Shown: positions 21,063 through 46,752 of the stretch, piece after piece
How the letters are laid out: each line of letters starts with the position of its first letter
How positions within the stretch are numbered: the first letter of the stretch is position 1
From: Candidatus Multivoradales bacterium
Lineage (GTDB): Bacteria; Acidobacteriota; Thermoanaerobaculia; Multivoradales; JAHEKO01
Length of the DNA: 64,000 bases
Direction of reading: 5' to 3'
Assembly: GCA_965248055.1 (NCBI GenBank)
Contig: CBDFIJ010000004.1
Coordinates: 640,001-704,000, forward strand
The notes under the pieces: generated by a model
What the model was told of the DNA's origin: nothing
What the model saw: only the letters and a program-made list of their open reading frames with translations
Databases searched by the model: none
Position numbers and translations under genes: made by a program

Positions 21063-21593
21063 GAATTAGTTACTCCTGTTGCGGGTCCAATAGACCCGTG
21101 TTGGAACCGCCTTCACCAACAAACCCCCATAAAAAAAACACCGACGATTTTCTGTACCTTACATCACACCCTCGCGCCTCGTAAAGTTGTCGCGGTACTT
21201 GAAACCTGAGACTCCATTTAAGCCTGCAAATAAGAGAATCTGAACGATCTCTCTTGGTAATATTTGTCGCAACTTAGTAGCTCATGCATCAGCATTTCTG
21301 AAGGCAGACTGGATGGTTCCCGTGAATCGTATATCCAAATTTCCAATGGGATTTAAGTCTTGGCCACGCTCAATAGAGGCGACTTTCCGAGATCCACTAC
21401 GGAGCACGTAGCAATATGCCAGTCCGAATAGTGGTGAATTCTGAGCACTGGGACCACCTATTTGGCAGGGCTCGAGCCGCAGAGCGGCCCCAACCGATGC
21501 ATACTCAGGGTCGAGTTCCAAGGCTGTTGTCTTTGTCGGGGTCAAATCTGCTGATGAAAGAAAATCATTTCACTACCCAGGGCGAATATTCGA

Positions 21594-22163
21594 GTGAGTG
21601 GCACCTTTCTCGAATTCTTACCCGATCAAACTAATCCTATCCACTGCGGTAACCTCTCCGCTGTGCAACGTTCGAGGTTGACCCTGGCAACTGCGGCCGT
21701 CCTCCTTGGATTGGCCGCTGGCGTTGTGTGGCTAGTAAGGCCAAGGCACGGCCCGATCCAAGACCTGACCTCGTGGACTTGGAAAGGCGCCCCCACAACG
21801 ACGGAGCCACTCCAGGGTGGATCAAGTGAAGATTGCTCCTTGGCACAGAGCTTCGTCCTTCGAAAGCTAGGCCGAGTATCCGTCCATCAGGCCGCGGGAA
21901 TCCCAGGGAGTTGCATGTACCTGTTGCAGCTCAACGGTTGGCCGGAGGGAGAAGATGAGTGCATCTTGGAGTTTCCTGTTGAGATGATCCGTGGACTTGA
22001 GATCACAACAGCGACTGCTTGGCTCGCAACACGCTATTACCAACACAGGCAAGGCGGAATTATGGTTTTTTCAGGCCCTGAGCCTGGCCGAAGATACATT
22101 TCACTGGACTCTCGTTGGTGCAAGTTCGAGGGCGTTGTAAACGGAATTCGCGCTATTTCGTAG
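21594..22163 (+). CDS. Hypothetical membrane-anchored protein (start uncertain)
   Basis: 189-aa ORF with one hydrophobic segment, flanked by repeat copies. Confidence 0.5.
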   Translation: MSGTFLEFLPDQTNPIHCGNLSAVQRSRLTLATAAVLLGLAAGVVWLVRPRHGPIQDLTSWTWKGAPTTTEPLQGGSSEDCSLAQSFVLRKLGRVSVHQAAGIPGSCMYLLQLNGWPEGEDECILEFPVEMIRGLEITTATAWLATRYYQHRQGGIMVFSGPEPGRRYISLDSRWCKFEGVVNGIRAIS

Positions 22164-22229
22164 CCCCAGGGCTGTCTGGTTGGATCAAATATTTCGAATA
22201 GTCGGCTGGCATCTACTAACTCAGATCCA

Positions 22230-23242
22230 CTGAGGAGTTTCAAAGCCATCTTGTTGAGCGCTACCAGCGGCGCACCCGAGAGGTGGATGAAGCGATTCTC
22301 GGCTGCTACCTAGCAGGGGCCAACAGCCGTCGGATCAAGAAGGCCTTGACTCCACTGCTGGGCAGGGAGCATCTATCCAAGAGCGCTGTGTCTCGGGTGG
22401 TATCTCGTTTGAAAGAGCACTTTGCCCGTTGGAGTGAACGAGGCCTGTCTGAGGAAAGCTACCCGATCTTGTTTCTTGATGGCTTTCACTTGAAAGTGCG
22501 GCTTGCTCGGCGCGTAGTGTCAGCTCCGGTGCTGGCTGCTCTGGGGGTAAGAGAAGATGGCACCAAAGTCCTGGTAGCTCTACGGTTAGCAGCCAGTGAG
22601 GCAGGCAGTCACTGGAAGTGGTTGATTGAAGATCTTAAACGCAGGGGCTTGAAAGCACCGCATCTCCTGGTCTCAGACGGCCACAAGGGCTTGGCGGTGG
22701 GAGTCAGAGCTTGGCCAGAGGCCAAAGTCCAGCGTTGTATCCAGCACAAGTGGGAAAACCTGAAGAAGCACTGCCCTAAGCATGCTCATGGTGAGCTCAA
22801 GCGAGACTGGGATCAAGTGGTGCGAGCCCAAGATGCCCTGGCGGCCCGAGAGAGTTATTCAATCTTTGTTACCAAGTGGTCCAAGCTGGTGCCCGCAGTA
22901 GCCAGGAGCTTCCAAGAGGCTGGGATGGAACTGATCACTTTCGACGATTTACCGAGATCATTGTGGCGATCCACAAGGACCACCAACGCGCTGGAGAATC
23001 TCAACCGTGAGTTTCGGCGCCGTACCAAGACCCAAGGCTCATTCTCGACTGAGGCAGCGGGTGTCACTTTGCTCTGGGGGCTCGTTGCTTTTGGACAGAT
23101 CAGGATGCACCGCATCAACGGCTACCAAGATTTGCACCGGATGCTTGACCGTCAAGCAGCCGCGTAGCACTAGAATCAACCAAACCTGACCGCGGGAGAC
23201 GTTACGCCAAATACCAATTTCCACAAGATTCGGGACACATCC
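22230..23242 (+). mobile_element. IS256-family element, 5'-truncated (transposase ORF 22283-23167)
   Basis: LFLDG...LVSDGHKGL...QRCIQHK...RTTNALENLNREFRRR; right end TTCCACAAGATTCGGGACACATCC; reading frame open only from ~22220. Confidence 0.88.
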
Positions 23243-23353
23243 AAAGGATTCCGCCGGATATTCTCTCGCTTCGACAAATTGGACGTCATCTTCACTTTCT
23301 TCATATACTTCGCGCTCATCGTAGATGCCATTCGTTAGTGTTAACACGCCCTA
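23243..23353 (+). mobile_element. IS5-family 3' remnant
   Basis: Encodes KGFRRIFSRFDKLDVIFTFFIYFALIVDAIR*, followed by terminal GTGTTAACACGCCCTA. Confidence 0.7.
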
Positions 23354-23591
23354 ATTCAGTTCGCGGACAAGAGGTTCTTTTGTGTGAGTTCAGAAGTGCT
23401 GGACAGGTTCAAAGAGCCAATTGACACGAACGCTTTCCAAGCCTATGCCGAGATCTTCTCTCGAACGATCAACGAGCATCGCAGCTTACGAGGACGGCCC
23501 GAGTATGGTGAGGCCCCCAACGGGCCGAAATATTCGGCTGGCACTTTTCTCGGCTTCATCTCATCCTGACTTTGTCTAACCACACCGACAA

Positions 23592-24611
23592 CTAGTCAAC
23601 ACGATAGATTTCGTCGCCTGAAATCTTAAGGACATAGGCATAGGTTTCTGGAAGGTTGTTCATTTGACGTGTGCCAATCGAGTAATCGGCGCTGTATGCT
23701 TTTGGCTGCGTATAGTAAACGCTACCACCGGTCAGACGAGCGTAAAGCAACATACTGAGAGAGATTGGCTTGGGACCATACGGGGCGTAGATGGAGCCAT
23801 TCTTTGACCCAGAGGCAAACGCGTGTATATGTGAGAATATCTCTGAAACATCCTTCCAATCCACCCACTGCATGTTAGGCGTTCGCTCCCCAAGGTCTCT
23901 GTCGAAAGCTTGGAGAAACTCCCACACGCGGTGATGTTCTGGCGTAAGTCCCGGAACGGGAACGAGCAAATGAAACTCCGCATGTTCGTATTGCTGATCT
24001 CCAAGAGGTGGAAGATTCAACGCTTGGAAACCAACGGAAATGACTACATTTTCGATCCGTTCCGGTGGGTAGTTTGGGCCAAACATAGGAAGATGAGCCC
24101 ATGGCTCAGGATCTTCGGCTAGTGCTCCGCTCCCATACCTCTCTGCTAGCGTATAGGTGACAATTAGGTTCTTGACGTTATCTGCGTCGAGAAGCATTTT
24201 GACCGTTGGAAAAAAGAAGCGCTTCGGCATAGTCGAAATGTCCACGATCACGTCTCCTTGCGGTGCACAATCGGTAACAAATCGATTCACCCGATCAGCG
24301 ATCTCTTGGGTACTCGCGAACAGTTGAATGTCCTCAACTGCGCTGGCTAGACCCCCTAGGGCACACAGCCGTTGTACCGTTTCGCTTGTCCTCTGCTGCA
24401 CCTCATCAGTGAACCGTGACGGCGGATCCTTGATAGAGAAGAATAAGCAAGGAGTGCATGATTCTGTCTTAGTCAGCACTTCCCAACAAGCGAGACACCT
24501 AGACTCTGGTCCCACGCTCCCAACAAAGCCCCACCGGCTCACATCCATTCGCTCAGCAATCCAAGAGAGTGGGCCCCACGGGCGCCATTTACCCTTCTCA
24601 AGTTCTTTCAT
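23592..24611 (-). CDS. Hypothetical protein with two Rossmann/CARF-like modules; last gene of the candidate defence operon
   Basis: VIVDISTMPK...VTYT and IYAPYGPKP...VYYTQP motifs; ATG directly follows the ATPase stop. Confidence 0.7.
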   Translation of the reverse strand: MKELEKGKWRPWGPLSWIAERMDVSRWGFVGSVGPESRCLACWEVLTKTESCTPCLFFSIKDPPSRFTDEVQQRTSETVQRLCALGGLASAVEDIQLFASTQEIADRVNRFVTDCAPQGDVIVDISTMPKRFFFPTVKMLLDADNVKNLIVTYTLAERYGSGALAEDPEPWAHLPMFGPNYPPERIENVVISVGFQALNLPPLGDQQYEHAEFHLLVPVPGLTPEHHRVWEFLQAFDRDLGERTPNMQWVDWKDVSEIFSHIHAFASGSKNGSIYAPYGPKPISLSMLLYARLTGGSVYYTQPKAYSADYSIGTRQMNNLPETYAYVLKISGDEIYRVD

Positions 24612-26639
24612 TTAGAAGAGTTCGAGCTGGTCGGAGCGGCCGTCTTGCGGCTTCGTCCTCCGCACCTCCTGAGCCTCGCGATTCCCCTTGGCAGCCTCCA
24701 TCCACGAGAGCGCCTCCGAAACCTTGACGTAGAGAGGTTCCTTGGCATGCTTTGCTGGTATTTGAAACCGCGGGGAAAGGATGGGTGCCAAATACCACTT
24801 ATTTCGGGGGCGTTTGTCCTCCCTATTGGTGGTGTGACGTGCATCGAACAAATGCCCGTAGTCGACTGCTTGTTTTAAGAACTTGTCGAGCTCCACGTAT
24901 TCTCCTAGTTCGTCTTCATCCAGTGAGAATCCGTTGTGTCCCGGGTATGCCATCCCTTTGTCTGCAAGCAACCTCTTGCGAAATGACCTGCCAAGGAACG
25001 AAACAAAACGTCGATACGTATGACCATTTGGCTGCTCCATAATTTTTTGATACCAGTACTCGCTTGCCTGAAATATACCAACCGTCTGTTCCTTGGTATC
25101 AATCGGGAACCGTACGCGTTTGTTGTTCACAATTGGATGTTTGCTCTCATATCGTGACCAGGTGGAAAAGATTTCTCTAGCTAGACTGATAAACACCAGT
25201 ATGTTTCCACCACTTAAGACACGTAGGTCGTCCTCACCAGACCACCTTAATCGCTGCTGACGCCTTGCAGCCATCTGCAGCAGTGCTTGGTGGACTCGCT
25301 CCTTTCTCCACCAACTCTTTGATTTCCATGAGAGTCCGTTCGCGGGTGGCTCTTGCTCAAGCATACGTGAACCCTTCTGCTGGCGGAGCATAGCTGCCCC
25401 CAAATTGGCGGATAGTGGGCTAGTCTCGCTCAGTTCGCGCAAATATACCTTCCAACCTTCGGGCCATTGCTCTACCAAGTCCAGGGAACGCTCAGCGTCG
25501 CTCCCCGCATAGACCTTGGCCTCATTCTCTGGCGAAGGTGTTTTGCCAAATACCTGTCGGGACAACGTTTCGCCACCTCCCTCAAGCTCGTAACCAGCGA
25601 ATTCCAGGCGTCGTTTCAGTACATCATCAGAGAAATCTGGGAAGATCCAAGTGCGGCGGTTTTCCTTCCTCCGCAATAGGTCATCCAGGTCAATCACGCG
25701 GTAGTTTCTCTCGTGTTCGAGGTTCGCTTCTGAACCGAAAATCCTCAAGTCCTCTCGCCAGGCGTATCGGCGAGCGCCAATTCGATAGGACACCTTAGGA
25801 TCCCGCGTCGCGAGGGCCTTGTTAATTAGTCGACGAAACTTGGGCTCTACCCGGTGAGCGTGAACATCACTAGCGAACCTCCCAACTTCCTCGTATTGGT
25901 CAACTCGAACAAACACTGGCATTTCCTTCGGAATTATTCCTATCTCTCTAAGCCCCTTGGCCGTTTGAGAAATCGGTTCACCGACCGGCGTCTTGGTGGT
26001 TGCGATCTCCGTAGGAAGGCGTTCCATATTGAAGTTCAGGAACGAGCGATACAGAGTCAGTCTTTTTCTCAGCCGTTTCCGTAGCTCTTCACAGTTCCGT
26101 ATTCCATCCAAGAATCCTAACCAACAGTCTTGCGCTGCTAACCATTGAGCGAATTCATCAAGACGACCACCGTGGGTATTGATGTTCCAAGATCTTGCCA
26201 ACTTACCTTCGCATGCGTCGTCGAGCTTCGAAACTGACTCAAGAATATCTTCAACTACCCAGTAGTTAAGGAAATCACCAAAATAGACAGCCGAAACGGC
26301 GCCCAGGTCCGGCCCATTTTCCTCCTGGAGTCGGCGTTGGCCGAAATCTGTGGCCGCACTCCTCGCGAGGTTAATCCCCGCTCCAATGAATCTGGCGTCA
26401 TCTTGGGGGAGCGGAAACTGCACACCAGCCGTGAAATAAGCAATCTGAATCTCTGGCTTAAGTAGGCTGAGAAGCATACTCTTACCGCTACCCTGAACTC
26501 CCTTCACTACGACATTGCCCACTTGGAACAATTCCTGAGCATGCTCTACAAGAAAAGGGCTAAACAGGGTCACAAAATCCTCTGGGGCAATGGTTTCGGA
26601 AACATAGAGCTCGTGAAATGGATTGCTGATCCGCGGCAT
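24612..26639 (-). CDS. ORC/CDC6-STAND-like P-loop ATPase
   Basis: N-terminal NPF; Walker A GVQGSGKS; Walker B VFVRVDQYE; GAGGTGG before ATG 26639. Confidence 0.8.
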   Translation of the reverse strand: MPRISNPFHELYVSETIAPEDFVTLFSPFLVEHAQELFQVGNVVVKGVQGSGKSMLLSLLKPEIQIAYFTAGVQFPLPQDDARFIGAGINLARSAATDFGQRRLQEENGPDLGAVSAVYFGDFLNYWVVEDILESVSKLDDACEGKLARSWNINTHGGRLDEFAQWLAAQDCWLGFLDGIRNCEELRKRLRKRLTLYRSFLNFNMERLPTEIATTKTPVGEPISQTAKGLREIGIIPKEMPVFVRVDQYEEVGRFASDVHAHRVEPKFRRLINKALATRDPKVSYRIGARRYAWREDLRIFGSEANLEHERNYRVIDLDDLLRRKENRRTWIFPDFSDDVLKRRLEFAGYELEGGGETLSRQVFGKTPSPENEAKVYAGSDAERSLDLVEQWPEGWKVYLRELSETSPLSANLGAAMLRQQKGSRMLEQEPPANGLSWKSKSWWRKERVHQALLQMAARRQQRLRWSGEDDLRVLSGGNILVFISLAREIFSTWSRYESKHPIVNNKRVRFPIDTKEQTVGIFQASEYWYQKIMEQPNGHTYRRFVSFLGRSFRKRLLADKGMAYPGHNGFSLDEDELGEYVELDKFLKQAVDYGHLFDARHTTNREDKRPRNKWYLAPILSPRFQIPAKHAKEPLYVKVSEALSWMEAAKGNREAQEVRRTKPQDGRSDQLELF

Positions 26640-26641
26640 GA

Positions 26642-27679
26642 CTACCACCTCGCCGATCGTGGAAACAGTGGACTCCAATCGCTTGACGAGTGGTGCACAA
26701 TTGGGACGGTGTTATCTGGAGTATTCGTGAATAAAACTACTGTTCCGCCGGTCCTACGATATCCAAATGGTGTGTAGGGTTTGTCTTTCTCCGACAAGGG
26801 CGGATTGGCACCGCAGACTTGAGCAAAGCTGACCTCCAAGAGAGCACGCAACTCGCCGAAGACTGCAGGCTCCGATTCCGAGGGCTGCGGTGATACAAAC
26901 ATATGTTTTTCCAGAGCTAGAACCGGTTCGAACTCTAGATTGGCATGTCTATTCGCAAGAGCCCTGCCTTTTGCAATGCCCGCCGGGCAAATAATAAGAG
27001 GGGTCAGCAGGACTCGTACGTTCTCCGAAAGTGAAGCAACAAAATCAACAGGATCTGCCATCTGACTCCCGCTGCCCACGAAATCCTCAAGCAGTACTAT
27101 GTGCTGTATGTCTCTCTTTTTAAGATACTCAAGGATCTTAGTTTTTGACCCGAGCTTGTGCAGGGTCATCCAAACAGGCCTGTACCACCGGCCTTCAATT
27201 TGGTTTACATGATAAAAATTCGCAATATCCATACTGTCAGTGATCGAGCAGAACCAAGTCTTGTCTATGACATTTGCCAGTGTTTGGTCTACGGCTTCGC
27301 GGTCAAAACTCGCACCTCGGTCAAGATCACGCAGTGCATGACGCGCGAACGGACCGTTAAATGCAGCGCGACACAAACCGTTGAGGTGTTCTTTAGTTAT
27401 GTAAAGCAGGAACGGAACGAGCTTAAACAACACCCTTTGCTGCTCCTCAGATTCAACGTTACTCAACCAGTCGCGGAGTCTCACCGGAAACTCCGGGAAC
27501 GGCCCAGCAGTCGGAACGTAGTCTCCAAATGCATGTTTCGAGACATATTCGATCACGTCGAACATCGTCAGGTAGTTTGCTCCCGAAGCAACGTTTCCAA
27601 CATCCAGGGAATCAAAACTCTCCTCTAGAGTCCACTTCTCCAATTGCTCTACGAAACTACGTGTGTTCGGCCAACTCAC
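26642..27679 (-). CDS. Type I phosphoribosyltransferase-like protein
   Basis: PRPP-binding loop HIVLLEDFVGSGSQ; C-terminal PFGY...NTPDNT...WSPLFPR. Confidence 0.8.
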   Translation of the reverse strand: MSWPNTRSFVEQLEKWTLEESFDSLDVGNVASGANYLTMFDVIEYVSKHAFGDYVPTAGPFPEFPVRLRDWLSNVESEEQQRVLFKLVPFLLYITKEHLNGLCRAAFNGPFARHALRDLDRGASFDREAVDQTLANVIDKTWFCSITDSMDIANFYHVNQIEGRWYRPVWMTLHKLGSKTKILEYLKKRDIQHIVLLEDFVGSGSQMADPVDFVASLSENVRVLLTPLIICPAGIAKGRALANRHANLEFEPVLALEKHMFVSPQPSESEPAVFGELRALLEVSFAQVCGANPPLSEKDKPYTPFGYRRTGGTVVLFTNTPDNTVPIVHHSSSDWSPLFPRSARW

Positions 27680-28878
27680 TGGAGAAGGCTCCGACGCACA
27701 CTTCGGGCTATCCAGGCAGCGGCCGGTGGAGGTACCGCGTTTCCGATCTGCCGATACTGATCCTGCCGCCTTCCGGAGAACTCATAGTCATCTGGAAACC
27801 CCTGCAGACGAGCGGCCTCACGAACGGAAAAACCGCGTGTTTCAGCCGGGTGGAGAAAATAGCGAGGATCTCCAAATCTGGTGTGCACGGTAGGAGCAGG
27901 CTCGTTCCACTGCAGTCGTTTGTATTTTCCGTTAAACGTCCGCGTCAGATCCCAATTGTCACCTACTTTCCGGATATACCCTTTTCCTAGGAGAGAGCGT
28001 GCTATATCAAGATACGCACTCCCCCATTTGCTCTGCAGCCGGTCAGGCGGTACTGGATCAGCATCGCCCCAGTTACGCCTTCGATTACGTCTCCTCTCTC
28101 GAAGTAAGAACGTAAGCAAAGCTCTTTCCTCGGCCGTTGTCCTTCCAAAGACCGAAGGGATTTCCCAGGTGTGAACAGCGTTCGGGCCAGCTCTTACATT
28201 GGAGAGTTTCTGGCCCGGACCTATGTGAGCTGCGATGGCCGTAACAACGCTATCAGCAGGTGGCCGGACTGGATAGTGGTCTGGTAGCGATTCAACATCT
28301 TTGAGCGCGTCGGCCAAAGACGACGCCTTTTCACCAAGGTGCTCCATGTAGAACTCCGCGTCCGTCCGCCATGCAATCAGCAACAGCCGCTTGCGGACTT
28401 GCGGAAGTCCAGATCTATCTGCATGACATACAAACTCTCGCGTACGAAATCCGCCTGATGAAAGACATTCATGAGCAGCCTGCCAGTACTTTCCATGTCC
28501 CCCGGTACGTGCTGCGGGGACGTTCTCAAGGACAAACACTTTTGGTCTGAGAAGGGTGGCCAGTTCTGCGGCGAGAGGCACGAAGTGATTTCGTGGATCA
28601 TCCACTCTTCTTTTTCCAGCCGTGGAAAACCCTTGACAAGGTGGCCCGGCGAGTAACACATCCACGTTGTAAGCTCTCGACGGAAACTCTGCAGGAGTCG
28701 AAAGGTCGCGGACCTCGCTTACTTTAGCGATGTTGTGTTCGTAGCTCGACAACGCGGCGGCATCAACGTCGAAAGCAGCAACCGGGCGAAAGCCGCTGTG
28801 AAGAAACCCTAAGTCAAACCCGCCGCAACCCGAAAAGAGACTTGCGAACCGAGGGGTGTCTTGAATCGCCGATAGCAC
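27676..28878 (-). CDS. dcm: DNA (cytosine-5)-methyltransferase
   Basis: FSGCGG, GPPCQGFS, ENV, PQVRKR, REAARLQGFP, QIGNAVPP; start moved to GTG 28878 because the longer ORF overlaps tRNA-Cys. Confidence 0.93.
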   Translation of the reverse strand: MLSAIQDTPRFASLFSGCGGFDLGFLHSGFRPVAAFDVDAAALSSYEHNIAKVSEVRDLSTPAEFPSRAYNVDVLLAGPPCQGFSTAGKRRVDDPRNHFVPLAAELATLLRPKVFVLENVPAARTGGHGKYWQAAHECLSSGGFRTREFVCHADRSGLPQVRKRLLLIAWRTDAEFYMEHLGEKASSLADALKDVESLPDHYPVRPPADSVVTAIAAHIGPGQKLSNVRAGPNAVHTWEIPSVFGRTTAEERALLTFLLRERRRNRRRNWGDADPVPPDRLQSKWGSAYLDIARSLLGKGYIRKVGDNWDLTRTFNGKYKRLQWNEPAPTVHTRFGDPRYFLHPAETRGFSVREAARLQGFPDDYEFSGRRQDQYRQIGNAVPPPAAAWIARSVRRSLLQ

Positions 28879-28884
28879 TTGCCC

Positions 28885-28890
28885 ATTATA
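28885..28890 (-). promoter_or_regulatory. Perfect -10 box (TATAAT) 6 nt before the methyltransferase GTG; likely leaderless promoter
   Basis: Minus strand reads TATAAT-GGGCAA-GTG; no Shine-Dalgarno. Confidence 0.6.
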
Positions 28891-28928
28891 GAAGCACGTG
28901 AGGAACGCCAAACTAATTGCGTGATTGA

Positions 28929-29003
28929 TGGAGGCGACGGTCGGAATCGAACCGACGAATGAGGGTTTTGCAGACCCTTGCCTTACCACTTGGCTACGTC
29001 GCC
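28929..29003 (-). tRNA. tRNA-Cys (GCA)
   Basis: GGCGACGTAGCCAAGTGGTAAGGCAAGGGTCTGCAAAACCCT...GGTTCGATTCCGACCGTCGCCTCCA. Confidence 0.97.
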
Positions 29004-29059
29004 TTGAGAGAACGGGGCGCCGGAGAATCGGAACCTCGAAAAGGCACAAGGATAAGAAA

Positions 29060-29134
29060 TGGAGCGGGAAACGGGATTTGAACCCGCGACCCCAACCTTG
29101 GCAAGGTTGTGCTCTACCACTGAGCTATTCCCGC
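29060..29134 (-). tRNA. tRNA-Gly (GCC)
   Basis: GCGGGAATAGCTCAGTGGTAGAGCACAACCTTGCCAAGGTTG...GGTTCAAATCCCGTTTCCCGCTCCA. Confidence 0.97.
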
Positions 29135-29145
29135 CCGGGCATCGA

Positions 29146-29174
29146 AGGATAGAAAGCGGGGGGCGGGGTGTCAA
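29146..29174 (-). promoter_or_regulatory. Sigma70 promoter of the tRNA-Gly/Cys operon
   Basis: TTGACA (29174-29169), 17-bp spacer, TATCCT (29151-29146). Confidence 0.75.
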
Positions 29175-29235
29175 GGAAAAGGGAGATTTTGGTGGCTTTT
29201 GCGCCGATAAGTTGGGTTGAGGAGGTTGTGGCGTC

Positions 29236-29580
29236 GAGATCCTTCGACTCCGGCCTACGGCCTGCGCTCAGGATGACAAGAAGTGGAAAAAGGGGGGCAA
29301 CTCGTCGAAGAAAAGGGGAGGGGATAAACCCTTTCCTCAGGATGACAAGAAGTGTGGCGTGGGGTGCAACTCATAGAAGACAAACGCGAGGGGGGTTATC
29401 CCTCTCCTATACAGAGTTCATCAGCTGAGGGTGCGCAGGCAGGCAATCGACAGATCCCGGCCCCGCGCCCACTCCCCCGCCGGGATGACGGGGTGACGGG
29501 GTGACGGGATGATGGTGTGAGTGAGCCGTTTGACCTGGCAGTGGATTGTAGGGTCGCAATAGCCAAAGGGACGCCTACCT
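29236..29580. repeat. REP-like palindrome cluster
   Basis: GAGATCCTTCG...CTCAGGATGAC; ~70-bp imperfect tandem duplication at 29267-29408; CAGATCCCGG...CCGGGATGACG at 29449-29490. Confidence 0.75.
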
Positions 29581-32381: not shown

Positions 32382-32894
32382 CTAAGATTCAGTACTTTCG
32401 AGTAGTCGTTTCAGTTTGCGTCGAACTCTCTCGCGCCTGAGGCCGCGGAGCCGATCGATGAAAAGTATACCGTCGAGATGGTCAATTTCATGCTGAATTG
32501 CCCGTGCCGCCAAACCCTCGGCTTCAACCTCAAACGTCGCACCGGTTCGATCTTGCGAGCGCACCCGGATCGCTGTCGCCCGATCCACCTTGTCGGTAAT
32601 CTCAGGAATCGACAAACAGCCCTCGACGTCAGCTTCGTTGCCCTCTGAATGTTCAATCACCGGATTGACTAAAACTAGCAGAGCCTCCGGGTCCTCCCCC
32701 ACCGTGATGTCGACGACCGCCACCCGTTTGGAGACCCCAATCTGCGGTGCGGCGAGACCAATCCCGGGCGCTGCATGCATGGTCTCGATCATGTCCTCGA
32801 CCAGCGTTTCGAGCTCGGTATCAAAGGTTTCCACTCCAGTCGCTTCTTGCTGCAAAACCGGGTCCGGGACCAGGCGAATATCGAGAACTGTCAT
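32382..32894 (-). CDS. def: Peptide deformylase
   Basis: GIGLAAPQIG, EGCLS, QHEIDHLDG. Confidence 0.97.
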   Translation of the reverse strand: MTVLDIRLVPDPVLQQEATGVETFDTELETLVEDMIETMHAAPGIGLAAPQIGVSKRVAVVDITVGEDPEALLVLVNPVIEHSEGNEADVEGCLSIPEITDKVDRATAIRVRSQDRTGATFEVEAEGLAARAIQHEIDHLDGILFIDRLRGLRRERVRRKLKRLLESTES

Positions 32895-32899
32895 GGCAA

Positions 32900-39340: not shown

Positions 39341-39415
39341 AAGAACCTGAACTGCCTTTCTAGGAGTGGCCTCAATTGCGGAGTTCGCCACCACCGCTCG
39401 CCTCGACCCACACCG

Positions 39416-39885
39416 CTACTCGACGGGTTCTAGATCCTCTTCCAGTTGGATCGTCTCCAGGTAGAGCACCAGCTCCTGGATTTTGCGCGCGGCCCGTTTC
39501 TCGCCATCGACCGGCTCCGCCCCTGGAACAGGACGCAACTCAGTCTGCAGCACTTCGCCCACACCGGCATCTCTCTTGCCCCATGCGCCTGGACAAATCT
39601 GCGACCATCGATGAACTCAGCAACCCGCTTGGCAGGAAACTCTCCTTCATTTTCTGGGCTTAGAAAACGCAAATCCGACGGTTCGACCTTGAGCATCGTC
39701 GCCAACATTCCGTTGCCGTCCGCGGCTTTGCCGTGGCAACTCGCGCAATAACGTTTGAACGTCACCCTACCACTGGCTGCGTACAGAGTCGGTTCCTCCT
39801 TTTGCTCCTGGCTTATCGCCGGAGTGAGCCCCAAAACCACAGCAAAGGCAAGCGTTAAAGCGACCCCAACAAACGATTTATTCAT
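39416..39885 (-). CDS. Monoheme cytochrome c with an apparent 1-bp frameshift near 39560
   Basis: Signal peptide; CASCH; HGAREMPVW. Adding one G gives WGEVLQ...KIQELVLYLETIQ ending at TAG 39416. Confidence 0.8.
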
Positions 39886-39994
39886 GATGTACCCTCCGAT
39901 GTTGTACACCGCAATTCCAGCAGTTTGGTCAGAGGGTTTGAGGTGTCTAAGCACCCTAGAACTGAGTCACAACTGGAGAAAAATCAGCAAGCAC

Positions 39995-41110
39995 TCAAGC
40001 CAACAGATCGGCGAGATCCCGGTGCTCGCGATCCTGTGATTCCGCCACCGGACCACAGGTGATCTCTCCGGCGTAGGTGTTGACCCCAGCAGCCAGATGG
40101 GGATCTCTGCGGGTGGCTTCTTCAGCTCCCAAGTCGGCCAAAGACAGCAAATGGGGCATGGTGGCGTTGTTCAGCGCGTAGGTCGACGTGCGAGGTACTG
40201 CACCCGGCATGTTGGTCACCCCGTAATGCACCACGCCGTCCACTTCATAGGTTGGCTCGGAATGGGTGGTCGCCTTGGTGGTCTCAAAACAGCCCCCTTG
40301 ATCGACCGCGACGTCGACGATCACCGAACCCGGTTTCATCTCCGCCAATAGATCTCGATTCACCAATTTGGGAGCCGAATAGCCAGGAACCAGAACCGCT
40401 CCGATCACCAGATCTGCGCGACTCAGGCCAGCAACGATGTTGTGCCGGTTGCTGGCCAAGGTGGTGAGCTGCCCGTGGAAGATCTCATCCAGATAGCGAG
40501 CCCGATCCAAATTGTTTTCCACAATCGTAACCCGTGCGCCCAGACCCAGAGCAATCCGCGCCGCGTTCAAGCCCACCACTCCCCCACCAATAATCACCAC
40601 GTCACCCGGGGGAACCCCAGGCACACCACCCAACAAGGTGCCGCGTCCGCCGAGACGACGCTGCATGAAGTAGGCCCCAACCAAGGTCGACATCCGCCCG
40701 GCAACCTCCGACATCGGCGTCAACAGCGGCAAGCGTCCGTTGCGGTCGGTAATGGTTTCGTAGGCAACGCCAGTGATCTTCTTCGCCAACAGGACGTTGG
40801 TCAGTTCCGGCAAGGGCGCCAAGTGCAAATATGTGTAGAGGGTCTGCCCCTCGCGCAGAAGGTCGTACTCACAAGCAACTGGCTCCTTAACCTTGACCAC
40901 CATCTCCGATTCGCCATACACCGCCGCCGCATCCGGCACAATCTTGGCCCCAGCGTCGACAAACTCTTGGTTGGTAATGCCACTGCCCTCACCGGCCCCA
41001 TCCTGGACTAGGACCTCATGGCCCCGTTCAGACAACTCGTGAGCCGCCGCCGGGATCATGCCGATGCGGTATTCGTGGTCTTTTACTTCGCTTGGAACGC
41101 CAACTCTCAT
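39995..41110 (-). CDS. ald: Alanine dehydrogenase
   Basis: [47 protein letters not shown]. Confidence 0.97.
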
Positions 41111-41227
41111 ATCGCTACCGGTCCTTTCGCACGCGGCTGAATGCCGAACGTTCGCTGTGGATCATTTGTCTCACTGCTGGCAACACCCCATTCGGTTCTT
41201 CGAGTCGCTCATCAATCAAGAGCGAAA

Positions 41228-41303
41228 TGGAGCGGGCAACGGGACTCGAACCCGCGACATCAAGCTTGGGAAGCTTGCACTCTACCAGCTGAGTTATGCC
41301 CGC
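41228..41303 (-). tRNA. tRNA-Gly (CCC)
   Basis: GCGGGCATAACTCAGCTGGTAGAGTGCAAGCTTCCCAAGCTTG...GGTTCGAGTCCCGTTGCCCGCTCCA. Confidence 0.97.
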
Positions 41304-41557
41304 TAAATGCCTTAACAGCTATGATTTAAGGTTCGCTACTGAATCTCTTTGATAGTCGAAGTTACCTGCGAGTTACCGCGCAGTGACTTTGACCCCTCAA
41401 GCCAGGGGGCAGCATAGCACCGCAAAACGCGACCTCATAGATCCGGTCTCTTGCTGGAGCGGGACGCGACAAATCCGCGAAACTCGCTCATAGTGGGTAC
41501 GCTTGGGATGTAGTCAGGCAGATTGGGGAAGCAAGACACCAACAGATTCACGTCTCA

Positions 41558-43306
41558 TTAGCTATGCGGTTCATCAAATAGCGGCGCAACCGAAGCCCCA
41601 GGGAGAGTTAACTGGCCAAATCTCTCTTTCGCGATCTTGGGTGCTATCTTGAATGTTGTGTCATAAGACTGCGAAGGCCTATCTAAACTTGCCCCATGCA
41701 GCATTTCTTCAACTGTGACGAGCTGTATTCGCGAATGCGAACTGCCTAGAGGCGATTCGTAAAACCCTGCAGATGCCGCCTCCGTCCGCATAGGTTTAGT
41801 TGGATTTCGGAGCGATAGCAACACCCCTATGGCAGCGCCTTCACGCTCGATCACACCGCGTAAGTCTCTGACGTGCGCCACGCTCGTCTTACCACCCTTA
41901 ACTGAGAAGATGATCTGTTTCGTATCTCCGCTGGTGTCGTCGTGGAAATAGAGTCGCCCGTCGATTCCCTTGTCAGCGCCCTTCGCGCCAGAATCTGCCT
42001 TTCGAGCGTCAGCTAGACCAAGCGCCCAAGCCTGAAATTGGAACGGATCGTCCTTGGCCAGCTGTCTGGCACCGTCAACTGCGGTTGGCTCACCCACCAC
42101 TGGCCTGTGCCAGTCAACCTCCTCGCCAAAATGGCCTCGCAAACGACTCTTGATTTGGTTGATTGCCAGGTGGGTTACATCGATCCCGATCCAAGTACGG
42201 CCCAACGCCTGGGAAGATGCCAATGCTGTTCCACATCCACAAAACGGGTCAAGAACCACATCGCCTTTGTTGCTACTTGCTGCGATTATGCGTTCCAGCA
42301 ACTTCAGCGGTTTCTGCGTCGGGTAGCCCAGCCGTTCAGCTTTTCCCGGAGGCCCAATGTCAGTCCAAACGTCCTGAAGCGGAACACCTGACATCTCGTC
42401 CAGATATCGTTTGTAGCGAGGCATGCCGCTCTTTGCGTGATACAGGCGGCGATCATGGACAAACGACTCCATATTGGATTTTGAATACGCCCAGTATCGC
42501 CCTTTGTACGGTGGTACACCATTGTATTCCCACCCAGGCTTCGGGTTCTTCCAGTCCCCATCCAGATCAGGGGCCCATCCCCCCCCCTCACGCTTCTTCA
42601 CGCGCCACAAATACTCTGTGTCGCCTCCAGGCTTTGCGGCAGTCAAATTATCGAGTTGATATCTCCTACCGGTGCCAAGTTCCTTGTGTGCGTACGAAGA
42701 CTTGATGTACTCCTCATTATAGGGAGTAAAAACCGGGTTCCAGGTCCATACTTGAGATTTCGTGTAGAAGAGAATGATGTCGTGGATATGGCCATGTCGT
42801 TTCCGTCCCTGTTTTGTATCGCTGTGTGCAGACGTACGCTTCCACACAAGTTCAGATTTGAATCTTTTTGCCCCAAAAACAGCATCGAGCAAGATCTTCA
42901 AGTAGTGGCTCGCCGTTGGATCGCAATGCAGATACATGGAACCTATTGGTTTGAGAACCCGGTGAAGCTCAACCAGCCTGGGGGCCATCATTGCTAGATA
43001 GGCAAGCATGTCAGACTCCCCTACGAGGCCGCGAAATGCTTGCAGCGCTCGGGAAACAGGACCACCGCTCTCTACAGTCTCGTGGTACGCACGTGCGGCG
43101 CCTTCGTCCCAGCGCCAAGTATCGTCAAACGCTTCAATTTGGGCTTCAGAACGTGTTCCATCCTGCTGCTTAAACAGTACGTTGTAGCTCTTGTTGGAGT
43201 TAAAAGGCGGGTCAAGGTACACCAGATCGACCGACTCGTCTTGGACATAACGACGCAGGATGTCTAGATTGTCACCGTAGAACAATTGGTTTCCGTTTTC
43301 AGCCAT
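41558..43306 (-). CDS. Beta-class N6-A/N4-C DNA methyltransferase with a C-terminal Mrr-like domain
   Basis: YLDPPFNS; YPTQKP; DPFCGCGT; GADKGIDG...SVKGG...VRDLRG. Confidence 0.88.
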   Translation of the reverse strand: MAENGNQLFYGDNLDILRRYVQDESVDLVYLDPPFNSNKSYNVLFKQQDGTRSEAQIEAFDDTWRWDEGAARAYHETVESGGPVSRALQAFRGLVGESDMLAYLAMMAPRLVELHRVLKPIGSMYLHCDPTASHYLKILLDAVFGAKRFKSELVWKRTSAHSDTKQGRKRHGHIHDIILFYTKSQVWTWNPVFTPYNEEYIKSSYAHKELGTGRRYQLDNLTAAKPGGDTEYLWRVKKREGGGWAPDLDGDWKNPKPGWEYNGVPPYKGRYWAYSKSNMESFVHDRRLYHAKSGMPRYKRYLDEMSGVPLQDVWTDIGPPGKAERLGYPTQKPLKLLERIIAASSNKGDVVLDPFCGCGTALASSQALGRTWIGIDVTHLAINQIKSRLRGHFGEEVDWHRPVVGEPTAVDGARQLAKDDPFQFQAWALGLADARKADSGAKGADKGIDGRLYFHDDTSGDTKQIIFSVKGGKTSVAHVRDLRGVIEREGAAIGVLLSLRNPTKPMRTEAASAGFYESPLGSSHSRIQLVTVEEMLHGASLDRPSQSYDTTFKIAPKIAKERFGQLTLPGASVAPLFDEPHS

Positions 43307-43558
43307 GCCACGAAGGCTATCAGTTCGCTTCACGTGCCAATATATCCAACTGGCTTATGCGATTTCAATGTTGGAATCTTGAATCGACACCCTCAGAAAC
43401 ATGAGAGTGAACCATGCACCGGTCCAAAGACGGACCCAAGAGAGTGCGAATAGAAGCTCGTCCTGAGGTTAGATCCGAATCTAAAGAACGCATGACCGAT
43501 GGAAAGAAAACCCTTGACTGGACCGCCCGACTCATAGAAGCCGAATATTCGTAAGTGC

Positions 43559-43897
43559 TTGACCGCTACGCCACGATGGTGGGATGTTCCTTTGATGCGT
43601 TTACGGCAACTTCGGCTGCGGAAGAGCTCAACAGGATTACTAGCGGTGATCATTTACGTGGCGATCACAGCTCTTCCTCTGCTGACGGGATCATCGCTGC
43701 ACGGGTTGGCTTCCATCGTCTTTCTTCTGACGCCTTGGATCTGGTTGATCCCGAGCGGTGGGTACCTTGCTTTGGGGACACATAGCTTCTGGATTATCTG
43801 CATCGGCGCCGCCTCGTTAAACGCGACCATCGTTTACTTGATGTTCGGTGGGCTGAGGGAGCGCGAAACTGGAGTTGGCCCCTTCTACCTTAGATAG
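43559..43897 (+). CDS. Hypothetical membrane protein
   Basis: Three hydrophobic segments. Confidence 0.5.
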   Translation: MTATPRWWDVPLMRLRQLRLRKSSTGLLAVIIYVAITALPLLTGSSLHGLASIVFLLTPWIWLIPSGGYLALGTHSFWIICIGAASLNATIVYLMFGGLRERETGVGPFYLR

Positions 43898-43969
43898 GTA
43901 GATTAAGAACAGGCGGCGACCCTGGGTCTGGCCGGATCCCCGAGATGGGAAACCTTGGACCAAGCTAGC

Positions 43970-44469
43970 TCAGCGATCTCCCATCAACACATCACCCAGG
44001 CCACCAAGAATCGACCCCTCTCCTTTGTGTTTGCCTCCACCCTGTGGGGCTGCAGCGAAGATGCGGCTTGCCAGGCGGCTGAACGGTAGCGACTGGACCC
44101 AGATCTTGCCGGGGCCGGTGAGGGCGGCAAAGAACAGCCCTTCTCCGCCGAATAACGCGGTCTTGATTCCCGGCACCATTTGGATGTCGTAGGCGACGGT
44201 GGACTCCAGTGCCACCAAGCACCCGGTATCTAGCCGCAAGGTCTCTCCGACGGCCAAGTCGCGTTCCAAGATGGTGCCACCGGCGTGGACGAAGGCCATT
44301 CCGTCCCCTTCCAGCTTCTGCAGGATGAAGCCTTCACCGCCAAAGAAACCGGCGCCCAGTCTGCGGTTGAAAGCGATGCCCACCGAAACACCCTTGGCGG
44401 CACACAGGAATGCGTCCTTCTGGCAGATCAATTGGCCGTTGTGCGAGGGCAGATCGATGGGAATGATGC
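43970..44469 (-). pseudogene. Duplicate of the 3' 500 bp of the TIGR00266 gene
   Basis: Colinear with 46753-47252; protein differs at only two positions seen (A/V and V/I). Confidence 0.92.
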
Positions 44470-44499
44470 TACAGGTGCCAGCCGAATATCCGGTTCGCT

Positions 44500-44710
44500 G
44501 GCAGTACAGCTTCGTCAATGTAGTCGAGACCCACAGCCGATGCTGAGGGTCGATTGAGATCTCCTGGATTCTCCCCTCGACCACAATCTCTGGGCGAAGA
44601 TCCGCCTGACTTTCCTGAGCCTCGACTTTCAAGCAACCGAACAGTGGAATTAGCAATGAAAGGGCCCATCTTCCTGCCAGGTTGCCTGATCGTCTTCCTA
44701 GGTTTCCCAT
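44500..44710 (-). pseudogene. N-terminal fragment of a secreted/lipoprotein (beta-propeller-like), fused in frame to the TIGR00266 duplicate
   Basis: GGAGGGGAG RBS; signal-like [10 protein letters not shown]; [16 protein letters not shown]; ends at the repeat. Confidence 0.5.
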
Positions 44711-44895
44711 ACTCCCCTCCTGTGACCTGATCTGGGCGGATTAGTTCCGAATCTTCCTAATAGCCGCTCTTGCATGATCATCAATCTGTCATGAGTACCA
44801 GCTGAATATCCGGATCGGTTTGCGCTGGAGATTCCGGCCCAAGCGGTGGCAGAAACTAAGGAAATATTCCTAGAAAAACTAATTAGGCACTTCCT

Positions 44896-45075
44896 CTACT
44901 CAAACAGGCTCACAGCGGCGAACCAAGCAGCAGCAGCTCCAATCGCGACGATCATTCCATACGACAAAAAGGAAACCAATGCAGCGAGCGTCACCACAAC
45001 GGCGGCCATGATCACAATCCCTCGCCTGCCATATCGATGGCCAACAAGGGCCACGGCAAGAACTCCAACTGTTAC
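44896..45075 (-). pseudogene. C-terminal fragment of a membrane protein
   Basis: Manual translation VTVGVLAVALVGHRYGRRGIVIMAAVVVTLAALVSFLSYGMIVAIGAAAAWFAAVSLFE*, starting at a repeat copy. Confidence 0.5.
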
Positions 45076-45294
45076 AGGTGCCAGATCAACCGTGTTACAG
45101 GTGCCAGCCGAATATCCGTGGATCTATCCTAGTGCGGAAGACGAGGAATCTTTCCACGGCCATGGCTGATACCGTTGGACTTATGAGGAAGCTCCATAGT
45201 CCTAATAGGTGCTAGCCGAATGTTCGGCTGGGACTAGTAATTCGGACTGCCAATTTGTGGGATGGGGTGTGTTGAGATTTTTGGAGGCCGGACA

Positions 45295-45690
45295 ATGCGC
45301 GATGAACAAGAGATACGAGATCTATTCAACAATTGGATAACATCAACAACCGAAGGAAATTTGGAATTAGCTCGTCAATGCATTGCCGATGACGCCGTGT
45401 TTCTTGTTCCCGGTGTTGGCGAGATGAATAAGGAAACGTTTGCTCAGGCTGCTGCGGGAGAATCACCTGAAGAATCCTCGATTGATTTTGCTCTCGATAG
45501 CAAGCTTCGTGAACTAAAGGTGTTTGGTGATCAAGCCTATCTTTGGATTGAATCGACCCTTGTATGTACTCCTAAGAATGGGGATCCGGCCACACGAATG
45601 GCGGGGCACTCCCTTTCGATATTAGAAAAGCGTGATGGCCGCTGGCAAATAATTCGAGACGCAAATACGATGACGGCGGTCCCGGAATAG
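45295..45690 (+). CDS. SnoaL/NTF2-like (DUF4440, SgcJ/EcaC-like) protein
   Basis: DEQEIRDLF...ADDAVFLVPG...LSILEKRDGRWQIIRDAN; GGAGG RBS. Confidence 0.85.
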   Translation: MRDEQEIRDLFNNWITSTTEGNLELARQCIADDAVFLVPGVGEMNKETFAQAAAGESPEESSIDFALDSKLRELKVFGDQAYLWIESTLVCTPKNGDPATRMAGHSLSILEKRDGRWQIIRDANTMTAVPE

Positions 45691-45914
45691 GTATTTCTGA
45701 ATGTGCAACGTAACAAATCGCTCTGTTTATAGTTGCTGCCGCTGCTCAGGTACCAGGCGAATACTCGGCCTGCACACAAAACTCCGCTCGCTTTCTCCAC
45801 CCGCGAGTGACACCCGGTAGGAAGAAAACCTCAGTGCGAGTAATCCCTTATCCCATAGAGCGAGACCCGACCAAGAACTGGGCTCTTGGACCGGTGGCGA
45901 GCTGCGTTTCATTC

Positions 45915-46637
45915 ATGGCTACCGAGATCGCGATGGCTGGTGTGATTATTCGGAGCCTGGAGCTGATGCCGTTGATGCCTCCCTTGATGACCCTTGCTGC
46001 TCAGGTGGTTGCGCTAAAGAAAGGACCTGAAGATCTAGAGCCGTTTGAGCGTTTTCTTTCCGAAGATATGGGGTTTTCGGGTATGTCGGAAGAGCTGGTT
46101 CGTGACGATTTCGCTCTGCCAAACTCTCACACCTTAGTAGCGCTGTGGAGTGCCATTGAGACCTGCCTTGAGGACACGATCGTCCTTACTTTGATGAACG
46201 ATGAGCGCGCTGCGACTTCCATCAGCGCAGAGGTTTCTATACCCAGCTATGACGAGGGACTACTTGACGAGCGTCAGGCGAGAGCTACGTTTCGTCGCCT
46301 TGAGAGCAAGGCCCGGCAAAGTCATGGGGTCATGGAGTCCGCCGACTGGATGCTAGGACTTATTGAAATGGCCCGAGAGCCAAGTTCAGACGCCTCGGAG
46401 GTGATGAGTGAGGTGAACGCACTACGAAACTCAATCATGCACAACGGTGGAGTATTGGACCAACGATCACTGAAGGCGGCACCAAGTCTGCGTTTCGTCG
46501 TTGGTGAGGAGATCAAAATCAAACGAGACGAGTTACGCTCCTACAACGACTCACTCAGTACTTTTGTTCAGGAACTGCTTTCTGGAGTGCTCGCGAGCCG
46601 CTATATGAGATCGAAGGAAGAACTTCAGCAATCTTGA
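45915..46637 (+). CDS. Hypothetical protein with a HEPN-type RxxxxH motif (start uncertain)
   Basis: Helical; WSAIETCLED...NALRNSIMHNGG. Confidence 0.6.
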   Translation: MATEIAMAGVIIRSLELMPLMPPLMTLAAQVVALKKGPEDLEPFERFLSEDMGFSGMSEELVRDDFALPNSHTLVALWSAIETCLEDTIVLTLMNDERAATSISAEVSIPSYDEGLLDERQARATFRRLESKARQSHGVMESADWMLGLIEMAREPSSDASEVMSEVNALRNSIMHNGGVLDQRSLKAAPSLRFVVGEEIKIKRDELRSYNDSLSTFVQELLSGVLASRYMRSKEELQQS

Positions 46638-46752
46638 AGCTCAGAGAACGCCCTTTTGTAGGTGCCAGTCGAGTATGCGGCCCTAGGTGCTGCCGCTGCT
46701 CAGGCCAGGCGAATATTCGCACAATAGTTCGAACGACACCTCCAAAGACTGC

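Follow-up and report, generated by a model that had tools for sequence, protein, structure and literature searches.

The short repeat found in two gene islands of a 64,000-nucleotide stretch of a Candidatus Multivoradales chromosome (the window) is very probably the terminal inverted repeat of Y1 (HUH) elements of about 1.2 kb, of which the window holds orphan ends only. The family encodes a Y1 single-strand-DNA transposase of about 300 amino acids, and its stray ends, as singles and head-to-head pairs, would lie in two islands that contain no transposase gene. We infer that these orphans were deposited by Y1 enzymes encoded elsewhere on the chromosome, which perhaps still cut and move them. 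A conspicuous repeat is thereby explained as the trace of a transposon family that has been little studied and is common in Acidobacteriota, where it is multi-copy. Since the window holds stray element ends only, it would represent ordinary selfish DNA and not a new gene-capture system.

Sequence and distribution of the motif

The motif has a single arm and is about 22-24 nt long (consensus ..AGGTGCCAsCCGAwTAT..); the bases preceding GGT vary (ACAG, ATAG, TCAG, AAAG, GTAG). It is real and far more frequent than by chance. A 24-nt scoring matrix, trained on 41 unique sequences that were all copies from outside the window, gave 93 matches genome-wide at a threshold of 14 bits, compared with 12 on the reversed-genome control. 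Eight matches of at least 14 bits fall within the window, and the 22-nt palindromic core is found there at two sites with at most three mismatches, against none in 100 shuffles.

The 93 matches group into 15 clusters and 18 singletons, a repeat family of singles, dimers and clusters. About a dozen of the clusters lie elsewhere on the chromosome, so the family is not restricted to two regions of the window, contrary to the earlier impression. One window match, at 32863 in a housekeeping block, falls in the first codons of a deformylase gene and, from reading the sequence, is probably a coding coincidence. Copies are often strung in one orientation (5 of 5 in the window, 21 of 22 at 1.37-1.40 Mb, and 4 of 4 in each of two strings in the sister genome G001). 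Orphan copies are not biased towards one replication strand (15 (+) and 18 (-) on one replichore, 9 (+) and 7 (-) on the second), which counts against a terminal-repeat origin. An Rfam scan found no family matching the motif or the IS110-like element described below; only tRNAs reached the gathering score, and one further sub-threshold match was judged to be chance. The window stretch is present in four sequencing runs, all from one study.

Thirteen motif sites had been reported in the window. Seven of them (22195, 23524, 44473, 44794, 45099, 45207 and 45748) score at least 14 bits and five are weak, truncated or degenerate; the site at 21416, which mismatches at 4 of 16 positions and stays below 9 bits, finds no support. 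The copies are as follows.

21577-21606, minus strand: degenerate inverted copy in which a 4-nt insertion separates the GGTGCCA block from the CGAATAT block; seen by eye, under the matrix threshold and only probable
22193-22216, minus strand: motif copy, 15.8 bits, outer end separated by 8-11 nt from the beginning of an IS256-like copy that is truncated at its 5' end
23525-23548, minus strand: top-scoring copy of the window, 28.6 bits, 44 nt beyond the final gene of a defence-like operon
43539-43551, plus strand: truncated copy, inner part only, severed by an IS110-like insertion, with the junction as at C4:1380445
44471-44505, plus strand: copy with a degenerate second arm and a hairpin fold, 18.1 bits, DNA fold z = -3.06
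44791-44814, plus strand: motif copy, 19.5 bits, fold not significant
45076-45084, plus strand: 9-nt partial duplicate of the motif's outer part, 14 nt ahead of the next full copy, seen by eye
45097-45120, plus strand: motif copy, 19.3 bits, 23 nt identical with the copy at 44470-44492 (repeat family D6)
45205-45238, both strands: head-to-head motif pair, the sole true palindrome, 18.9 bits (+) and 13.2 bits (-), fold z = -3.33
45746-45769, plus strand: motif copy, 19.2 bits, sharing its outer flank with the copy at 46702
46658-46681, plus strand: weak copy, 11.6 bits
46702-46719, plus strand: copy shortened by a 2-nt deletion; 46684-46719 matches 45730-45767 at 89.5% identity over 38 nt

The repeat comparison confirmed the 23 identical nucleotides at 44470-44492 and 45096-45118, and the flank TGCTGCCGCTGCTCAGG is indeed common to two copies. 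Similarity of the window orphans, both among themselves and to complete elements, is otherwise limited to about 22 nt. None is identical to the end of a complete element, with 3-7 differences in 24 nt; the nearest neighbours of the copy at 23525-23548 are the left ends of transposase elements at about 1.14 Mb. A partial tandem duplication like the one at 45076-45084 is also seen upstream of transposase genes in distant relatives.

The family had been described as palindromic. This does not hold in general, the pair at 45205-45238 being the single true palindrome: a search for the 26-nt palindrome with at most three mismatches matched this site alone in the genome and none of 30 relatives. Only two of the eight window copies folded better than shuffled sequences. 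Known Y1 transposases recognise hairpins, and the six copies without a fold therefore count against a terminal-repeat origin.

The motif flanks Y1 transposase genes

The enzyme gene was correctly predicted to lie outside the window, where the nearest Y1 gene or fragment is at least 57 kb from the motif copies. The chromosome itself encodes Y1/HUH transposases, with 13 matches to PF01797 and 16 to a family profile, corresponding to about 15 genes or fragments (13 of 15 on one replication strand, a count that includes non-independent duplicates). The motif is located about 55 nt ahead of the start codon of every full-length Y1 gene in this genome, and an inverted motif follows about 200-300 nt downstream of the gene, for a total of roughly 1.2 kb. 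One such unit (1481363-1482527), bounded by (+) and (-) motifs, is repeated at 1486707-1487881 with 96.5% identity. A longer segment of 3,257 bp occurs with 100% identity at two loci separated by 0.96 Mb; its start lies 3 nt outside a left motif, its end coincides with the outer edge of an inverted motif, and no target duplication was found at its ends. Between these ends the segment includes about 900 nt of additional DNA and also a nested IS110 element.

Motif and gene are linked across the chromosome: 31 of the 93 matches lie within 500 nt of a Y1 gene (0.6% for random positions) and 55 of 93 within 5 kb (3.3% for random positions). Both Y1 genes of G001 are flanked by the motif in the same (+)...(-) arrangement. 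Of 30 relatives searched, 27 contain the family, in as many as 24 copies per genome. We also sampled 79 distant loci from Acidobacteriota genomes, whose proteins are 46-53% identical. The upstream motif is (+) in 48 of these loci and (-) in 4, the downstream motif is (-) in 48 and (+) in 7, and both ends are correctly oriented in 38. Around these loci there are 260 motif matches in 503 kb, against 29 on the reversed sequence. The end sequence is thus still recognisable while the enzyme has diverged to about 50% identity, which makes the two a concrete candidate enzyme-substrate pair for the biochemistry of Y1 transposases with inverted-repeat ends.

Taken from sequence, these observations (Y1 genes elsewhere, the linkage of 31 of 93 matches within 500 nt, and the inverted flanks here, in G001 and in distant Acidobacteriota) argue for the HUH/RAYT-type enzyme acting in trans that the original prediction had put forward. 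The window copies, at least 57 kb from any Y1 gene and none identical to a complete end, are possibly old and inert.

The transposase protein

The Y1 protein is 295-303 amino acids long, with HYH and Tyr130 invariant in 19 sequences and a tyrosine motif KY(L/I)LSQ, that is, Y-x3-Q. In a profile search the best sequence match among solved structures was ISDra2 TnpA (E = 5e-4, tyrosines aligned). The predicted structure (pLDDT 78.7) best matched the E. coli REP-associated transposase 4ER8 (E = 8e-6, target TM 0.68). Pfam assigned Y1_Tnp alone, leaving the C-terminal 140 residues as a domain without assignment, and detected no C-terminal helix-turn-helix (DnaA_C, HTH_23, HTH_28). Homologues carry the JGI label RayT; the NCBIfam model REP_Tyr_transpos (NF047646) gave 46.5 bits, below its cutoff of 80.

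Two strain-variable islands beside tRNA genes

The window copies lie in two islands bordered by tRNA genes, island 1 at about 21063-28928 and island 2 at 41304-46744.

28929-29134, minus strand: tRNA-Cys and tRNA-Gly(gcc), right border of island 1 (tRNA calls)
41228-41303, minus strand: tRNA-Gly(ccc), left border of island 2 (tRNA calls)

The expectation that these regions vary between strains was borne out by G001, from which island 1 is absent (about 400 nt in the interval, compared with 7.9 kb here). The counterpart of island 2 is much shorter and motif-free, the distance from the tRNA to the AIM24 gene being 1.35 kb in G001 and 5.4 kb here. Outside the window, the intergenic DNA around the solo copy C4:3004111 is too diverged from G001 for an empty-site comparison, and two other solo loci gave partial matches only.

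Truncated genes end at the motif

Three truncated genes or elements adjoin motif copies in the islands.

22224-23245, plus strand: IS256/Mutator-family copy without its first 345 nt (Pfam Transposase_mut, profile positions 104-366 of 379)
43411-43538, plus strand: right-end remnant of an IS110-family element, 98-99% identical to full-copy ends
43962-44469, minus strand: duplicate of the 3' 508 nt of an AIM24-family gene (Pfam AIM24), stopping 1-3 nt away from the outer end of the adjacent motif copy

The coincidence of three truncation points with the motif, noticed earlier, stands up to comparison with full-length copies. The AIM24 fragment is identical to 46745-47252 at 461 of 509 positions and its homology stops at 44469; the IS256-like copy, one of about eight in the genome, begins at 22224, 345 nt into a full copy of 1365 bp; and the IS110-like remnant (43411-43539) runs into the motif itself. 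The truncated AIM24 and IS256-like copies may have arisen when DNA was broken and rejoined at the outer edge of the motif beside them.

A second element, of the IS110 family, inserts in the motif and creates further breakpoints. At independent loci this IS of 1,394 bp interrupts the motif. It is intact at C4:1379050, where it divides the left end of a Y1 element that has an uninterrupted sister copy at 1397785, and further insertions in the motif are seen at 1145554/2104273, at 43539 in the window and at 1488028. The 43539 copy was recognised by its exact contact with the IS110-like end, the same as at three other loci; at C4:1380445 the remainder of the motif is found across the intact IS. 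The full copies compared with the window remnant (C4:1380312, 1144161 and 2105538) encode a transposase with the Pfam domains DEDD_Tnp_IS110 and Transposase_20. The motif is thus a hotspot at which two unrelated mobile elements come together and gene fragments end, which aids the annotation of island boundaries.

Alternative explanations

Inverted-repeat ends and a Y1 enzyme could also form a cargo system that moves any DNA between two inverted motifs without target duplication, local insertions building up co-oriented accessory genes beside tRNAs. If true, this would be a functional analogue of an integron run by a HUH enzyme. It is hinted at by the extra DNA in the 3,257-bp duplicate, by the co-oriented motif strings and by a three-gene segment, enclosed by inverted motif copies at 1136630 and 1139108, that was not found in G001 at the DNA level. 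The earlier suggestion that the sites build cassette arrays fares poorly, as no motif-bounded gene module of the window is repeated elsewhere in the genome. A 276-aa island gene had three distant matches only across 400 genomes of the class, too rare for a test of motif linkage. We regard a cargo system as unlikely.

The motif might instead be maintained chiefly as a landing site for the IS110-family element, with the window copies as used and unused targets. The independent insertions inside the motif agree with this, as does the report that IS110 relatives target REP repeats (PMC1525189). However, about four full or near-full copies and a few remnants of this IS stand against 93 motif matches, and the IS gives no reason for the motif to flank Y1 genes across the phylum. 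As the main explanation this is quite improbable, and it complements a terminal-repeat origin more than it competes with it.

We give only a slim chance to an operator or promoter, bound by a regulator or sigma factor and carried along with the transposase gene's left end, whose orphans would regulate the downstream island genes. The position of the motif ahead of every Y1 start codon would suit such a role, and three window copies likewise precede possible start codons (44846, 45262 and 45807) by 51-57 nt. However, a promoter would not be expected to have an inverted counterpart at a constant distance beyond the gene, as seen in 48 of 79 loci, and genome-wide an open reading frame, crudely called, starts downstream of the motif hardly more often than on its outer side (62 against 53 of 93). 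The spacing of the two conserved blocks is, in our reading, unlike that of sigma-70 or sigma-54 promoters, and both were rejected by eye on this ground.

An integron-like array, in which the motifs are attC-type sites of a cluster without integrase and the genome's integrase acts in trans, has almost no probability: the genome does encode a genuine integron integrase (TIGR02249, 344 bits against a cutoff of 265) and the island 2 copies are co-oriented with small genes in between, as in attC clusters, where short imperfect repeats separate small, unrelated, co-oriented genes in a variable region, but the integrase is about 790 kb from the window, the palindromes beside it have TAAC...GTT ends unlike the motif (by eye), six of eight copies lack a fold, and the motif accompanies a Y1 gene instead of an integron integrase in genomes across the phylum. 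The tyrosine-recombinase mechanism considered earlier is thus not supported, while the accompanying remark that the motif lacks RYYYAAC...GTTRRRY ends holds for the copies read, which have no R''/R' boxes. The attC-like sites that the genome does have are unlike the motif; a strict attC pattern scan of 130 kb around the integrase gave no matches, being insensitive enough to miss even the attC-like sites there.

Comparison with known Y1 systems

As terminal inverted repeats of a Y1 element, the motif copies share features with three described systems. As in the IS200/IS605 family (IS608, ISDra2), a HUH Y1 enzyme with a Y-x3-Q motif is encoded by multi-copy genes, and no target duplication flanks the duplicated element. 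However, IS200/IS605 ends carry subterminal hairpins in the same orientation and no inverted repeats, whereas the present ends are inverted repeats, and the IS200/IS605 enzyme has 130-150 aa compared with about 300 aa here.

The REP/REPIN-RAYT systems (E. coli TnpA-REP, PDB 4ER8; Nunvar 2010; Bertels & Rainey 2011) are described with short inverted repeats around the gene, orphans and head-to-head pairs, all of which are seen here, and the Y1 fold is predicted to be closest to 4ER8. In these accounts the RAYT gene is single-copy with hundreds of intergenic repeats, whereas we found about 15 genes or fragments, some identical, and fewer than 100 repeat copies clustered in islands. REP sequences are presented there as 20-40-nt hairpins with a GTAG-like tag; the present motif lacks a GTAG tag and, in most copies, a hairpin.

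[quoted passage not shown] The elements described there resemble ours in having a RAYT-like Y1 gene between inverted repeats, without REP hairpins, and moderately abundant repeats as singles, dimers and clusters. The TIRtron repeats given are mostly GGGGWSAS, two positions apart from the GGTGCCAS of the present motif. The TIRYTs described by Quentin (2018) have a DnaA-like or other helix-turn-helix tail, whereas Pfam finds only Y1_Tnp here, and the TnpA-Y1 subclass 2.1/class 2 is given as Y-x3-NP (PMC6006769), whereas the present protein has Y-x3-Q as in IS200. According to the 2013 account, the class of Y1 transposases with terminal inverted repeats was at that time without tests; the same paper defines an Acidobacteria group, possibly the present family (PMC3733652).

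Distribution of the motif

The motif of the original prediction is real, as its 22-nt palindromic core with up to three mismatches matches the window (G000:C4:640001-704000, in a source genome of 3.4 Mb) twice and 100 shuffled sequences not at all. A repeat finder recovered a 26-nt family with four copies in the window. To avoid circularity, we trained a 24-nt scoring matrix on 41 unique copies, all from outside the window. With a cutoff of 14 bits, this matrix detected 93 matches on the chromosome versus 12 on the reversed sequence. The window has eight of the 93; seven are proposed sites, and the eighth, at 32863 within the opening codons of a deformylase gene, was read as a coding coincidence. 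The proposed sites fared unequally:

Proposed copies of the motif in the window
22195, 23524, 44473, 44794, 45099, 45207 and 45748: pass the 14-bit threshold
46660: 11.6 bits, under the threshold
43539, 45076, 46702 and 21577: truncated, partial or degenerate copies, told by their flanks or by eye
21416: without support

The unit common to the copies is only about 22 nt long. To call it a palindromic repeat family overstates the case, because folding beat that of shuffled sequence for only two of eight copies and the full 26-nt palindrome occurs at one site in the source genome and in none of 30 relatives; the motif is one-armed, and its copies stand head to head only sometimes. Nor is it confined to two regions of the window, since half-motif searches and the matrix reveal about a dozen other clusters along the chromosome.

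The motif flanks Y1 transposase genes

Searching the genome with the Pfam model Y1_Tnp gave 13 matches, and with a profile of the family 16. The intact genes encode proteins of 295-303 amino acids, and each has a motif about 55 nt 5' of its start in the same orientation and an inverted copy 3'; one such intact gene is C4:1142356-1143243. A 1,165-bp unit (1481363-1482527), whose ends are one (+) and one (-) copy of the motif, is present again at 1486707-1487881 with 96.5% identity. A 3,257-bp segment is 100% identical between 1142300-1145556 and 2107530-2104274; the identity begins 3 nt outside the left motif and stops at the outer edge of the inverted motif, and no target duplication was found at this duplicate. 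Overall, 31 of the 93 matches have a Y1 gene or fragment no more than 500 nt away (0.6% for random positions) and 55 have one no more than 5 kb away (3.3% for random positions).

Cumulative GC skew places the origin at about 1.95 Mb and the terminus at about 0.1 Mb. The sense strand of 13 of 15 Y1 genes or fragments is on the lagging strand, a bias overstated by the binomial p of 0.007 because several of these genes are mutual duplicates.

The family profile has matches in 27 of 30 same-order genomes, a tally that takes in one unpublished genome (G002) used for no other result, with 1 to 24 matches per genome. None of the 30 is a strain with more than 95% identity to the source genome. Both Y1 genes of the sister genome (G001) have motif flanks in the (+)...(-) arrangement. 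With one genome sampled per species, a scan found 79 loci with proteins 46-53% identical, all from Acidobacteriota metagenome-assembled genomes, mostly Thermoanaerobaculia.

Motif orientation at the 79 loci
Up to 200 nt upstream of the gene: expected (+) at 48 of 79, opposite (-) at 4 of 79
Up to 400 nt downstream of the gene: expected (-) at 48 of 79, opposite (+) at 7 of 79

Both ends are correctly oriented at 38 of the 79 loci, and the distant loci have 260 motif matches in 503 kb versus 29 on the reversed sequence. The motif has thus accompanied the Y1 gene as its inverted terminal repeat over a divergence of half the protein sequence. As at window 45076/45099, the outer AGGTGCC part is also partially duplicated in tandem at distant loci.

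Between the window copies and the ends of the complete elements there are always 3-7 differences in 24 nt, and the nearest Y1 gene is at least 57 kb away; the window copies may therefore be old. No excision product, circle or empty site was seen, and around a solo copy the intergenic DNA is too diverged from G001 for an empty-site comparison.

The Y1 enzyme and related systems

All 19 aligned sequences share the HYH motif and Tyr130. Among solved structures, a profile search found ISDra2 TnpA (2XM3, E = 5e-4), with HYH aligned over the HuH motif and KY(L/I)LSQ over the catalytic tyrosine motif. The best structural match of an AlphaFold model (mean pLDDT 78.7) is the E. coli REP-associated transposase 4ER8 (E = 7.9e-6, target TM 0.68), ahead of ISDra2, IS200 and IS608. 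The NCBIfam model REP_Tyr_transpos gives 46.5 bits, short of its cutoff of 80, and the C-terminal ~140 residues, an extra domain, have no Pfam match. A protein search retrieved 1,470 homologues, and many of those listed carry the JGI label 'REP element-mobilizing transposase RayT'.

Among described kinds, the TIRtron/TIRYT class comes closest; PMC3733652 presents it as RAYT-like genes flanked by inverted repeats, including an Acidobacteria group, with repeats that can form moderately abundant families in dimers or clusters. Compared with the class as worded in PMC3733652 and PMC6006769, the repeat reads GGTGCCAS rather than GGGGWSAS, the tyrosine motif is Y-x3-Q, the IS200 form, rather than Y-x3-NP, and Pfam detects no helix-turn-helix tail, whereas one is described for TIRYT. 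The published Acidobacteria group may coincide with the family studied here.

An IS110-family element inserted in the motif

A 1,394-bp element whose transposase belongs to the IS110 family (Pfam DEDD_Tnp_IS110 and Transposase_20) is found inside the motif.

IS110-like elements and remnants (chromosome C4 unless stated)
1379050-1380443: splits the left end of a Y1 element; uninterrupted sister copy at 1397785
1144161-1145554 and 2104273-2105666: in the right end of the 3,257-bp element
1488028 and window 43539: remnants that stop at the cut motif

These junctions indicate that the motif is an insertion target of the IS110-like element. IS110 relatives are described as targeting REP repeats (in PMC1525189). 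The words GTGCCAG and AGCCGA occur within the first ~100 nt of the element, ahead of its transposase start, and recur as the two halves of the motif into which it inserts; they would fit the guide loops of a putative bridge/seek RNA.

Variable islands and breakpoints in the window

Both motif-bearing regions of the window are variable islands adjoining tRNA genes. About 400 nt stand in place of the first (~21063-28928) in G001. At the second, the interval from tRNA-Gly to the AIM24 gene is 5.4 kb in the source genome versus 1.35 kb in G001, where no motif was found across the locus. The DNA holding the motif cluster at 1.136-1.147 Mb is likewise absent from G001 at the DNA level.

Two truncations lie next to motif copies. 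The homology of an AIM24 fragment to the full gene stops at 44469, and the outer end of a motif is 1-3 nt away; an IS256-like copy is cut 345 nt in, with the outer end of another motif at a distance of 8-11 nt. The AIM24 fragment is a 508-nt duplicate of the 3' part of the gene (window 43962-44469 versus 46745-47252) with only 91% identity. It does not look like a duplication in place, but as if a 2.8-kb circle from a different lineage had entered by Campbell-type integration.

In G001, a 47-nt copy of part of tRNA-Gly(ccc) (G001:C1:604536-604582) is found beside the gene for alanine dehydrogenase; the full tRNA (G001:C1:609482-609560) is 4.9 kb away. This arrangement appears to be the signature of a different island integrated in the tRNA gene there.

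The first island, absent as a whole from G001, includes a defence-like four-gene operon.

Genes of the operon (window 23592-29049)
CARF-like protein (PADLOC PDLC01923, E = 1e-70)
ORC-CDC6-like ATPase (Pfam PF24389)
PRTase-CE (PF24390; PADLOC PRTase_III-A)
C5 cytosine methyltransferase

A separate repeat of ~110 nt (23243-23353), with at least eight other chromosomal copies that are 83-88% identical, follows the IS256-like copy and precedes the motif at 23525. The island is bordered by the gene for a 1,209-amino-acid protein with eight DUF7933 repeats and DUF11 (17433-21062), whose G001 orthologue has 65% DNA identity.

Possible cassette capture, and the integron

Cassette capture by motif-bounded units is a possible though unlikely reading. 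The 3,257-bp duplicate is a motif-bounded unit able to carry extra DNA, and strings of co-oriented copies recur (all 5 in the window, 21 of 22 at 1.37-1.40 Mb, and all 4 in each of two strings in G001). Segmental duplication accounts for part of this cassette-like evidence, a motif-then-gene test did not discriminate, and no window module was found again elsewhere.

The chromosome encodes a true integron integrase (C4:1492702-1493805, positions 16702-17805 of fetched region L017; TIGR02249, 344 bits versus a cutoff of 265). The first small genes are separated from it by two palindromes with the TAAC...GTT ends typical of attC sites. Read by eye, these palindromes are unlike the motif, which argues against the motif as an integron site. 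An SRPBCC/polyketide-cyclase cassette accompanies the integrase and attC-like palindromes (L017 ~15225-15950), and the ~11 kb from the integrase to the malate/lactate dehydrogenase gene hold two Y1 elements, a TIR-domain gene and a DDE insertion sequence.

Four motif copies at C4:1384355-1394976 are each directly followed by GGAGG, ATG and a frame with YD/RHS-like repeats, and in G001 a copy is immediately 5' of a 646-amino-acid RHS-repeat frame (fetched region L127:1957-3901). The motif may be a marker of orphan RHS modules.
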